DNA of 10,630 nt from a virus. Positions within the stretch are counted from its first letter, which is position 1. Each line of letters opens with the position of its first letter. The notes under the pieces were generated by a model, which saw only the letters and a program-made list of their open reading frames with translations, ran no database searches and was not told the DNA's origin. This document shows positions 7,495-10,630 of this stretch, one piece after another. The position numbers and the translations under genes were made by a program. The DNA is taken from UHGV virus genome UHGV-1631556. One strand, 5' to 3'.

Positions 7495-8347
7495 TGTTTG
7501 CTGTCTCCTTTAACAGAAAAGAAAAGGCCTCATCCGGCGACATCACGTCGTCGGCAAGCCCTGCCTGCACCCCTTCGTCAGCCCGCAACGTCCGGGCCTC
7601 AAGTGCACGCACCGCATCCGCGCTGATGCCACGGTTGCGGGCAACGGTTTCGATAAAAAGCGTGCCTGCAGCGTCAGTGTCCGCCTGAAGTGCCGCCTGT
7701 GCCGCCTCACTCAGCGGACGCAGCGGACTGGTCTCCGCCTTCCGGCTGCCGCAGGTGATGATGGTCACGTTCAGCCCCTCATCCTTCATCTGGCGCGACA
7801 TGTCACAGTGCACGTAGATGACACCGACGGATCCCACGCCGCCCGTGCGGGGGACCAGGATCCGGTCTGCGGCGCTGGCAAGGGCATAGGCCGCCGAGTA
7901 CGCCGACTCCGAGAGAATGGCGTGCACCGGTTTCTGCCCGCGACAGGCAAAAATCGTGTCCACCAGATCAAAACACCCGGCCACTTCTCCGCCGGGTGAA
8001 TCGATATCAAGACAGATGCCCTTCACATCAGGGTCGTTAAGCGCCGTCAGAAAATTTCGCCGGATGCCGTCATACCCCGTCATGCCGGAGTAAGGCCGTA
8101 GCGTCCCCAGTTTCTGTACCAGGGTGCCGTGCACGGGAATGATGGCGATCCCCTCCAGAATGTCGTACCCGCTTTCAGGGGCGGGACGGCAGAAATCGTC
8201 TTCATCATCGTCATACCAGGCCCCCGTTTTTATCCGGGTGATCCCGAGTCGTTCTGCCAGTGCCGTAACAATGATTTCCGCTTTTCGCGGATGAATGGCC
8301 AGCGGCGTGTTCAGCAGGCGCTGGCTTAACAGTGCAAGTTGATTCAT
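7487..8347 (-). CDS. Prohead protease, S49 peptidase family (lambda gpC protease domain-like)
   Basis: 286 aa; ...EGIAIIPVHGTLVQKLGTLRPYSGMTGYDGI...DIDSPGGEVAGCFDLVD... parallels lambda C (...NGIAVLPVSGTLVSRTRALQPYSGMTGYNGI...DMDTPGGMVAGAFDCAD...); ATGA overlap with the portal stop. Confidence 0.85.
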   Translation of the reverse strand: MNQLALLSQRLLNTPLAIHPRKAEIIVTALAERLGITRIKTGAWYDDDEDDFCRPAPESGYDILEGIAIIPVHGTLVQKLGTLRPYSGMTGYDGIRRNFLTALNDPDVKGICLDIDSPGGEVAGCFDLVDTIFACRGQKPVHAILSESAYSAAYALASAADRILVPRTGGVGSVGVIYVHCDMSRQMKDEGLNVTIITCGSRKAETSPLRPLSEAAQAALQADTDAAGTLFIETVARNRGISADAVRALEARTLRADEGVQAGLADDVMSPDEAFSFLLKETANNG

Positions 8348-9947
8348 GAAACATCAGGCTCCTTCGGCTCTGCCGGGTCACTGCCCGTCGGTGTGGGGGC
8401 AAACTGCTCTGCCTGAAACCAGGAAGGCGGTGTCAGGCCTCTTTCCTTAAAGGCCCGCTCTTCTCGCGCCCGCTGATCGAGAATGTCCTCGAAATCTTCC
8501 CCCACGTTCTCAGCCACTTCGATTTCCAGCGTGGACATGCCGGCCTCCATCGCCAGAATCGCCCCTTTTTTCTCCGCGACCGGATCCACCCAGCCACGCC
8601 CCGGTCCCATCCAGTGGGCACGGGTGTAAGCGGCCCGCGCCGCCAGAAAATCCGGTGCGCCTGCAGGCAGCGGCAAATCCTCTTCTTCGTGCAGCTCTTC
8701 CAGAAACGCCGTCAGCACCGGCTGGGCAAAGCCAACCGCAAACTCATCACGACGGCGGGTCAGTGTTTTCCACGCCTCAAGGAGTGCCGCGCGGGCAGAG
8801 CTGTAGTTAACGTCCGACCAGTCCTGTGTCACCTGCTGGGTGGACAGACCCAGTGCAGCGGCAATATTCCTGAGCACCGTGCCCTCGAACTCCTTAAAGT
8901 TACTGACCGGGCGGGCGGCGCTCACGGCTTTTGGCTCTTCGCCGGGGAACGTGATGGGAATACGCACGCCCGACATCGAAATCCGGTTAGTATCGTGATA
9001 CTTCATGCGCGCATCCTGGTAGCCATTAATCACCTCCGCGTCACTCATCAGATCTTCTGTCAGTTTCGGGTCATAGGGCGACGTGATGAAAAAACCGAAC
9101 ATGGCATTGATGATGGCGGCTTCCAGCTCCACCTGGTCGTACTTGATAAGCATTTTCAGACGCTGAACCACGGGATTGAGAATACCGACGCCACGATGCT
9201 GGCCCGCACGGTCATGATCAAAGTCATGCACCACCACCGGCCTTCCCCACGACGTTTCACGCGGCACTGCCGCTCCACCAGTCCCCCATGTGTGCGGACC
9301 GGATGTGATAGGCTACCGGCACCCCGTCCGCGTCAATTTCCACACCGCCACGAATATGCGGCATGTCAAACGCATCGTTCGGGTTACTCAGCCGGTCGGG
9401 GTCAATCACCTGTACCACCGTACCGTAACGCCCGCGACCGGGGGCTATTCTGTCCGGTCGCCAGTGGATGACCGCCGATCATCTTGTGGCGGAATGCCAG
9501 CCGGAAAAGCTGCGGCAGGGTCTGTCTGCGTTCAAGGTCGCAGTAACACCCGGCATCACTGGCCCAGTTGCGCCAGTGTGCCTCCACACAGCGCCCGTAC
9601 TCATCCGCCCAGTCTGCATCAAATGCCCGGTTGCCGGTCATCTCTGCCAGCATCCGGTAGTCAGGCTTCATCCTCGGGCGAAAAACCACCCCCATGGCAT
9701 TGTCCAGCAGACGGGTGATACTGCCATTCGCCCAGCCGTCATTGCGGACAAGGTCGCGCATTCTGGCAACCATACGGCTACGCCAGATATTCACTTCATT
9801 GTCCGGTGACCACAGTACCGGGTTCCAGCCCGCCACCGAACCGTGCGAGAAACCGGCAGAGTCGTAGGGGATCCGCCCGCTGTCATTCAGTGCGCGTTTT
9901 TTTTCCGTCTGTTGCGGAAAAGGTCTGCCATTTTTATCGACTATCAT
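8344..9947 (-). pseudogene. Portal protein, lambda gpB-like, disrupted by two frameshifts (or two sequence errors)
   Basis: N-terminal part 9402-9947 (...MRDLVRNDGWANGSITRLLDNAMG...) and C-terminal part 8344-9267 (...VPRETSWGRPVVVHDFDHDRAGQHRG...) both resemble lambda B but are in different frames. The bridging segment ~9265-9480 reads in the third frame (...RLSNPNDAFDMPHIRGGVEIDADGVPVAYHI..., cf. lambda ...RISNPNNTGDSRNCRAGVQINDSGAALGYYV...). Frame changes fall within 9402-9479 and 9264-9313, windows containing a G5 run (9440-9444) and a C5 run (9283-9287). Confidence 0.6.
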
Positions 9948-9955
9948 CGCTCACC

Positions 9956-10177
9956 TCAGTAACGCACGCTCAGAGACCTTCTCGTCCTAATCCCCAGCGC
10001 CCGCTGGAGCGTCGCGATCAGCGCCAGCAAATCAGCACTGCTGGCCTGTGAATAAGTCACGGTGCGCGTGCCGTCTCCCTGTGCATAGGAGAAACTCACG
10101 CCACGCCGCCCTGAAAGCAGCTCAATATAGGCCGCCTGAGCTTCATTCAGTGCCGCCTTCAGTTGTTCTTTTGACAT
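9956..10177 (-). CDS. Head-tail joining protein, lambda gpW-like
   Basis: About 73 aa from ATG 10175-10177 (MSKEQLKAALNEAQAAYIELLSGRRGVSFSYAQGDGTRTVTY...), similar in pattern and size to lambda W (68 aa); located between terminase and portal as in lambda. The track's start at 10189 is a GTG. Confidence 0.7.
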   Translation of the reverse strand: MSKEQLKAALNEAQAAYIELLSGRRGVSFSYAQGDGTRTVTYSQASSADLLALIATLQRALGIRTRRSLSVRY

Positions 10178-10630
10178 TCCGGCAAACACGCCGGGGGGAT
10201 TCCTGCAAGCCTCATATGCAGCGGTATTTTCTTACGGGGTATCTCCGGTGCTTTTGCGCCCGGCATACTTAAACTGATTTTTTCTTCCGGCTGCGCGGGA
10301 GGCGGCTCCATGAATGACAGATCCTGCGCCGCCCGTTCAGCCAGACGGTTCAGTTTCAGACCGTGATGCAGCAGCCCCTTCAGGGCCGCGTAACCGTACA
10401 CCATACAGTCCAGCGCCTCATTCGCCCGTCCGGCAGACAGCTCCCAGACACGGTACACCTGCCCGCCGTTCTCCTTACGCACCAGACGCTCAGAGAGCAG
10501 CTGACTGAAATAATGCAAATCCAGAAACGACGGAAAATGGATACAGCCTGCGGCAGGCGCGCCTGCCGGATCCGGCTCAATATGGAGCCGGTGCCTGATG
10601 TCGTCCTTCGCGGAGTTCACCCCCAGAATG
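10159..10630 (-). CDS. Terminase large subunit, C-terminal end (gene begins beyond the window end)
   Basis: Frame is open from 10630 down to the stop at 10159-10161; position directly upstream of W and portal matches lambda gpA. Contains ...GQVYRVWELSAGRANEALDCMVYGYAAL..., which I read as the conserved C-terminal region of lambda-type large terminases. Confidence 0.65.
   Translation of the reverse strand, partial: ILGVNSAKDDIRHRLHIEPDPAGAPAAGCIHFPSFLDLHYFSQLLSERLVRKENGGQVYRVWELSAGRANEALDCMVYGYAALKGLLHHGLKLNRLAERAAQDLSFMEPPPAQPEEKISLSMPGAKAPEIPRKKIPLHMRLAGIPPACLPECQKNN

Follow-up and report, generated by a model that had tools for sequence, protein, structure and literature searches.

Does the phage represented by this sequence really carry a broken portal gene? 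The window, by which we mean the whole stretch of viral DNA that was analyzed (10,630 nt), holds a lambda-family portal gene on its minus strand (8344-9947) that is spread over three reading frames, and such a structure could reflect a decaying prophage, programmed recoding, errors in base-calling or a fault of assembly. Our analysis indicates that the split portal is not a biological feature. It is very probably a local assembly artefact, and the same holds for all three losses of sequence described below, in place of prophage decay; the real phage most likely has an intact portal of 546 aa.

A portal gene in three reading frames

The initial annotation had described lambda gpB-like similarity running across three minus-strand frames, and this was confirmed by translation and by three consecutive matches to PF05136 (Phage_portal_2). 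Across 8344-9947 the portal sequence is read first in frame 1, then in frame 2 and finally in frame 3; the fragments in the list of open reading frames (9402-9947, 181 aa; 9257-9418, about 70 aa; 8344-9267, 307 aa) cover successive profile positions (4-119, 125-178 and 194-354), with scores of 93.6, 48.3 and 154.4 bits, all above the gathering cut-off of 32.9 bits. The portal of an intact relative scores 333.6 bits against the same profile and matches the solved structure of lambda gpB (8k38) with an E-value of 9.6e-65. As assembled, the window portal is not a single open reading frame; its homologs all are, with lengths of 546 or 554 aa, and a three-frame structure was found in none of them.

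The gene lies in a morphogenesis block that fills the window on the minus strand and that combines, according to gene calls and Pfam matches, a lambda-like head with a contractile tail. The head module comprises a gpA-type large terminase (terL), gpW, the gpB-type portal, an S49 protease, a decoration protein and an E-type major capsid protein, in a lambda-like gene order that gene calls and Pfam matches also show in the intact prophages, and the tail module comprises sheath, tube and a tape measure with an SLT domain. Upstream of the portal are the 3′ end of terL with the gpA nuclease domain (10159-10630; PF20454, 70.3 bits) and the head-tail joining gene gpW (9956-10201; PF02831). In the rest of the block (1-8347) every gene called is full length: the S49 prohead protease, a 193-aa protein, the decoration protein, the major capsid protein, a head-tail joining protein, the tail sheath, the tail tube, a tail assembly protein and the 5′ part of the SLT/tape-measure gene. 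The window is a section of an E. coli prophage or phage, an ordinary representative of a known kind.

The window corresponds to an entire contig from a human-gut metagenome, ena:ERZ773149:NODE_3133_length_10630_cov_2.919149, whose SPAdes-style name reports a k-mer coverage of about 2.9 (cov 2.919). The GC content is about 0.6 and flat along the window, so that local composition gives no reason for a loss of coverage.

Three missing segments

A megablast search of complete E. coli genomes with the portal gene identified nine prophages that carry it, and in the eight full-length matches, all annotated as an intact “phage portal protein,” the 1604-nt query aligns to 1641 nt. Alignment with two of these intact portals (1641 nt, 546 aa; E. 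coli prophages) placed the missing sequence in two gaps. After gene position 471, 14 nt (GACGGCGATGCGCT) are absent at window junction 9477|9476; after gene position 680, 23 nt (GTGACACGATGCACTGGGAACGC) are absent at 9268|9267. Both junctions fall inside the intervals to which the frame changes had been assigned, and the earlier reading of two changes in the same direction, each equivalent to one extra base, was also correct: the losses of 14 and 23 nt are both 2 mod 3, and this is why the arithmetic worked. Together with the frame changes, conserved sequence equivalent to 12 codons has gone missing. We attribute the three-frame state to assembly, since putting back the 14 and 23 nt gives a single open reading frame of 546 aa, which has one substitution (S57N) and is otherwise identical to the intact E. 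coli prophage portals (545/546).

Comparison of the whole window with the intact prophage L001 revealed that a further 15 nt (GAGTGAGACGATGAT) are absent at junction 10203|10202; outside the three losses the two sequences are collinear with no net indel. The portal had been taken to be the only affected gene of the block, a view that does not survive this observation, as the 15-nt loss takes out the terL stop codon together with the Shine-Dalgarno sequence and the ATG of gpW. In terL as assembled, the last three codons and the stop are swapped for an out-of-frame tail of 13 codons. In gpW as assembled, translation could start only at an internal GTG or ATG; the gene is called as 77 aa from a GTG at 10189, and intact relatives have 83 aa.

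All three junctions lie within 936 bp, and each shows some microhomology in the minus-strand sequence: 2 nt (GA) at the 15-nt loss (10201-10203), 1 nt at the 14-nt loss (9459-9477) and 3 nt (GTG, 9267-9265) at the 23-nt loss (9265-9268). A search of the junctions for spurious overlaps (10 nt or longer, two mismatches or fewer) found none, the best 10-mers having four to five mismatches. At the 14-nt loss there is a longer and less perfect resemblance: positions 9476-9459 (GGCGGTCATCCACTGGCG) form an 18-nt pseudo-overlap that is identical at 13/18 positions to the true sequence GACGGCGATGCGCTGGCG, and the true overlap there is only 4 nt, GGCG. The junctions in the portal are also near-palindromic (GCGGCA g TGCCGC at the 23-nt loss; GATGATCG g CGGTCATC at the 14-nt loss); for each of the two, only about 2% of window positions give a match. 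A hairpin-related deletion signature was considered on account of these palindromes, and was judged a probable coincidence once the joins proved to be assembly breaks; a CRISPR or other self-targeting origin of the clustered deletions was likewise considered and dropped.

The closest intact relative, the E. coli prophage L033 (GCA_017769305.1, contig DADTDV010000049.1), differs from the window over 9718 nt by three SNPs and exactly these three gaps. Five of the six differences fall in window 9268-10630, and there is a single SNP in the 1-8347 region, to the extent that the L033 alignment, which spans window 913-10630, covers it. No 1-nt indel is present in the 9.7 kb aligned. Some 33 related loci all retain these segments at every site that their alignment to the window covers, and a variable-gap junction pattern gave no match in genome_contigs; elsewhere the pattern recovered the intact 23-nt site only, in nine viral contigs and two metagenome contigs. 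A megablast search of the phage collection with the portal gene gave no match, and the nearest named phages, Serratia phage BZS1 and Citrobacter phage phiNP, have a portal identity of only about 67%. Lesions of other kinds are on record in related prophages: terL is annotated as frameshifted in one from a complete genome, and the E24377A prophage has a portal-to-capsid deletion.

The three joins cluster in 2 kb that share few 55-mers with a sister prophage type, recognized by a portal of 554 aa; the remainder of the contig shares about 50-100% of its 55-mers per 500-nt bin with that type, mostly near 90%. Prophages of both types (546-aa and 554-aa portals) co-occur in E. coli strain “numer 3.” If both were present in the sample, coverage of the type-specific part would be about half that of the rest.

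Contig boundaries in other assemblies

The 77-aa gpW provided a handle on further assemblies, in that its protein cluster includes a second contig, L036 (ERZ28661960, SAMEA2737846, 1172 nt). We attribute this contig and four others (L037-L040) to the same reads on the grounds of common contig ends and 100% identity; one record names run ERR589841, project PRJEB6997 and human gut as its source, and two others name sample SAMEA2737846. L036 shares its starting base with the window contig and matches it without a difference over 1155 nt, a stretch that takes in the 15-nt loss and the two local SNPs. Past that point it runs on with the intact GACGGCGATGCGCTGGCG, so keeping the 14-nt segment, and then ends. 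L040 (k119_52787, 744 nt) begins at window 10202 (GAATCCCCCC, GAATCC), where the 15-nt loss has its right edge, also carries the 14-nt segment intact and stops 4 nt beyond it. The ends of L036 and L040 are the exact end of the 18-mer that matches the right flank in the window at 13/18 positions; superimposing these 18-mers and retaining the right-hand copy recreates the 14-nt “deletion” of the window.

At the 23-nt loss, a look-up of the C-terminal portal fragment with V taken literally as its first residue yielded three contigs that begin at window 9267 (GTGCCGCG), the right edge of the missing segment: L037 (from the same assembly as L036, 9253 nt), L038 (ERZ914724, a k127 contig whose record names ERR589841, PRJEB6997 and human gut metagenome) and L039 (ERZ27262678, a k119 contig). 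Downstream of 9267 all three are 100% identical to the window, L037 outside a private loss of its own. Expressed in L033 coordinates, the 15-nt segment occupies 3241-3255, L040 occupies 3256-3999 with the 14-nt segment inside it at 3982-3995, the 23-nt segment occupies 4205-4227, and L037, L038 and L039 start at 4228. The starts of L037-L039, and both the start and the 744-nt length of L040, had been predicted from the artefact model before these contigs were looked up. Each of the three junctions thus coincides with contig ends elsewhere: that of L040 at 10202, those of L036 and L040 at the 14-nt site, and those of L037-L039 at 9267. The 14-nt segment itself is seen in L036 and L040; at the 15-nt and 23-nt sites the other assemblies show contig boundaries only, and the 15-nt join is common to two assemblies, those of the window and of L036.

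The private loss in L037 is of 14 nt (GCGAAACGCCGGTG) in the decoration gene, at about window 6692-6705; the window is intact there, and L038 and L039 both end at this site, a fourth break point. In an unrelated metagenome scaffold, L027, the same portal gene is split by ten Ns and a duplicated GCTG. Losses of this kind are assembler-specific, as seen in the private loss of L037 and the N gap of L027. Within the collection, the exact fragment proteins are confined to contigs attributed to this sample. The C-terminal portal fragment, searched by its 306-aa suffix, gave no match in the protein collection, and a query with a short peptide from the frameshifted tail yielded no candidates, a result that carries no information.

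These observations suggest how the losses could have arisen. At a coverage of about 3x, there would be three places where the reads fail to meet or share no more than a few bases; the assembler would then have joined the flanks through a short or imperfect overlap, dropping 15, 14 and 23 nt, and two of these joins would fall in the portal, each shifting the frame by the equivalent of +1. We infer both the exact joining step and, from the other assemblies, that reads spanning the junctions were missing. Under Lander-Waterman expectations at 3-5x base coverage, a few gaps of zero coverage should occur per 10 kb, and three joins would be unsurprising. The SPAdes scaffolder accepts overlaps scoring above 0.7 and favors longer over very short ones, a rule that would fit the join at 13/18.

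A sibling contig of low coverage, L014 (cov 2.4), was compared with its nearest reference and has no microdeletions, only a single extra C; this control spoke against an artefact until the same-sample assemblies turned up, and it indicates that the artefact is not universal. The SPIRE paper reports megahit as its assembler (PMC10767986), but records in the naming style of ERZ28661960 contain both an N gap (L027) and a private microdeletion (L037), so that the assembler behind ERZ28661960 may not have been megahit; if this second assembler does no gap joining, the 15-nt join could be read-supported.

Alternative readings and comparison with known systems

Real decay of the prophage, in which deletions in a bacterial chromosome inactivated the portal, terL and gpW, has in its favor the microhomology of 2, 1 and 3 nt at the junctions, deletions with 1-3 nt of microhomology being a normal route to pseudogenes. 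The 15-nt join made in two assemblies and the genuine lesions of related prophages, namely the frameshifted terL and the E24377A deletion, point the same way. Against this, the 14-nt segment is intact in two contigs apparently derived from the same reads, all three junctions are contig boundaries in other assemblies, and the exact fragment proteins are confined to contigs attributed to one sample. Three deletions of at least 14 nt against three SNPs over 9.7 kb are, moreover, far from the usual relation of indels to substitutions; the ordinary accumulation of mutations gives a far lower ratio of such indels. We therefore regard decay as very unlikely. A mixed origin, with an artefact at the 14-nt site and, at the 15-nt site, at the 23-nt site or at both, real variants of the sampled population that happen to sit at contig breaks, would accommodate the fact that only boundaries are seen at these two sites in the assemblies of this sample, as well as the 15-nt join made by two pipelines. 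Yet the right edge of each loss is just where the graph-only contigs begin, as would be expected of a gap in coverage; graph-only assemblers would have read straight through a deletion that had read support; and the assembly that shares the 15-nt join (L036/L037) makes a private 14-nt loss of the same join type elsewhere; we hold this combination to be highly improbable. There is a very slight chance that the sampled E. coli population truly carries at least one of two losses, that of 15 nt in terL/gpW and that of 23 nt in the portal. If so, clustered lesions would very recently have inactivated the packaging/portal module of a prophage otherwise 99.97% identical to intact copies, and the two near-perfect palindromic junctions might hint at an unusual mechanism of loop excision.

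The initial annotation left the choice between decay and technical error, and proposed that two homopolymers had each gained a base. A technical error is indeed what we favor, and decay is not supported; it is the homopolymer explanation that the run lengths refute. The G5 and C5 runs are present as described, on the plus strand at 9440-9444 and 9283-9287, and neither is a lesion: in gene coordinates they sit at 504-508 and 661-665, and no intact homolog in the alignment differs from the window in their sequence or length. Taking one base out of each run does yield an open frame of 533 aa, as anticipated, but this is a false positive, 13 residues short and with two scrambled stretches, in contrast to the 546 aa restored by re-insertion; the 9.7 kb compared with L033 are also free of the 1-nt indels such errors would leave, and the likelihood of two base-calling errors is practically negligible. 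Hardly any credence attaches, either, to programmed recoding, in which the portal would be made through two +1 ribosomal frameshifts: the frame structure itself suggests it and nothing else does, the homologs of 546 or 554 aa are all single open reading frames, and the frame changes coincide with conserved sequence that has been lost.

Given that local assembly artefacts are the preferred reading, the biology of the phage is unaffected, and its portal is most likely an intact one of the ordinary lambda type. The split had been thought decisive for whether the element is functional. The lesions are very probably absent from the DNA itself, and therefore the split cannot decide this; as an assembly break, the lesion in the window has no bearing on the functionality of the phage. 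The wider point is one of caution, in that contigs from short-read metagenomes of low coverage can hide, where gaps were joined, microdeletions of 14-23 nt that are clean and N-free; these have exactly the look of microhomology-mediated deletions and create false pseudogenes. Their false products stand in the protein collection as separate entries: here a “portal” of 181 aa and another of 307 aa, a gpW of 77 aa and a terL with a false tail. Scans of such contigs for decay, recoding or pseudogenization should check the coverage given in the contig name and make a comparison with alternative assemblies or the reads.

On its face, the window resembles cryptic or defective prophages, with a split portal, a terL lacking its stop codon and a gpW lacking its start codon; unlike the lesions of such prophages, these are not reproduced by other assemblies apparently made from the same reads, and they occur in no other genome. 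With E. coli prophages that have a lambda gpB-type portal (PF05136; 8k38) it shares both the protein family and the gene order, differing from them in that the gene is interrupted as assembled, and it departs from lambda itself in having Mu-like sheath and tube genes for its tail. A further parallel is with local assembly errors, in which a join has no supporting read, a problem already described for metagenome assemblers (Chen et al., 2020, Genome Res; PMC7111523). As in those cases, the consensus at the joins apparently has no read support, the joins lie where coverage fails, and wrong protein-coding sequences enter public databases. What sets the window apart from them is that its microdeletions, of 14-23 nt, are clean, N-free and unflagged by the sequence, and that three joins within 936 bp mimic microhomology-mediated deletion.

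Interrupted genes in related contigs

The homologous portal gene in L027, an unrelated metagenome scaffold (ERZ28625774), is divided into segments of 200 and 350 aa because a duplicated GCTG followed by ten Ns lies within it (L027:4057-4070). Here too the portal gene is affected, in this case by an artefact of scaffolding.

The decoration gene of L037, a contig from an assembly attributed to the window's own sample (ERZ28661960), is broken into 82 and 53 aa by a private loss of 14 nt (GCGAAACGCCGGTG) at L037:2563, with a 4-nt microhomology, GCGA. The site corresponds to about 6692-6705 in the window, which is intact there, and two contigs with k-mer-based names (L038 and L039) both terminate exactly at this point.

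Apparent frameshifts also occur in terL. The low-coverage sibling contig L014 (ERZ773216 NODE_5080, coverage 2.4) carries one extra C, which may be real or an error, at L014:1040 relative to a 99.5%-identical reference, and its terL as assembled is divided into two ORFs by this base; terL is likewise annotated as frameshifted in a complete genome, L002 (NZ_CP027550.1).

Palindromes at the false junctions

Of the three false junctions in the assembled window, two read as near-perfect palindromes: GCGGCA g TGCCGC at 9262-9274, and GATGATCG g CGGTCATC, with one mismatch, at 9468-9484. For each of the two, an equally good palindromic match occurs at only about 2% of window positions. The palindromes are probably a coincidence; alternatively, read coverage may tend to drop out beside inverted repeats.

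Mosaic structure and prophage relatives

Comparison of 55-mers with the sister prophage type, which has a 554-aa portal (L015 and L016), indicates that the block is a mosaic with a type-specific packaging end. Below about 8600 most window 55-mers are common to both types (in bins of 500 nt the shared fraction runs from roughly 50 to 100% and is usually close to 90%), and the figure is 0-27% in the part carrying terL, gpW and the 5' portion of the portal gene (8600-10630), within which all three false joins fall.

The gene for a 193-aa protein (6913-7494) holds 20 of the 45 mismatches to the intact E. coli prophage L001 and, against the same prophage, a few 1-nt indels at 7063-7073 that compensate one another; it is identical in L033, the closest intact relative. 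This has the look of recombination between prophage variants over a small patch. The GC content is about 0.55-0.65 along the whole window. E. coli typically has roughly 0.51, so the window lies well above its host's usual value, as would fit a phage module that moves horizontally.

No enterotoxin genes like those of the L015 sister prophage are found in the window. In that prophage, from E. coli strain numer 3 (L015:1-432; NZ_CP141863.1 1160271-1161416), genes with the annotations enterotoxin A family and heat-labile enterotoxin IIA B chain lie just upstream of the lysis genes; it appears to be an LT-II-encoding prophage.
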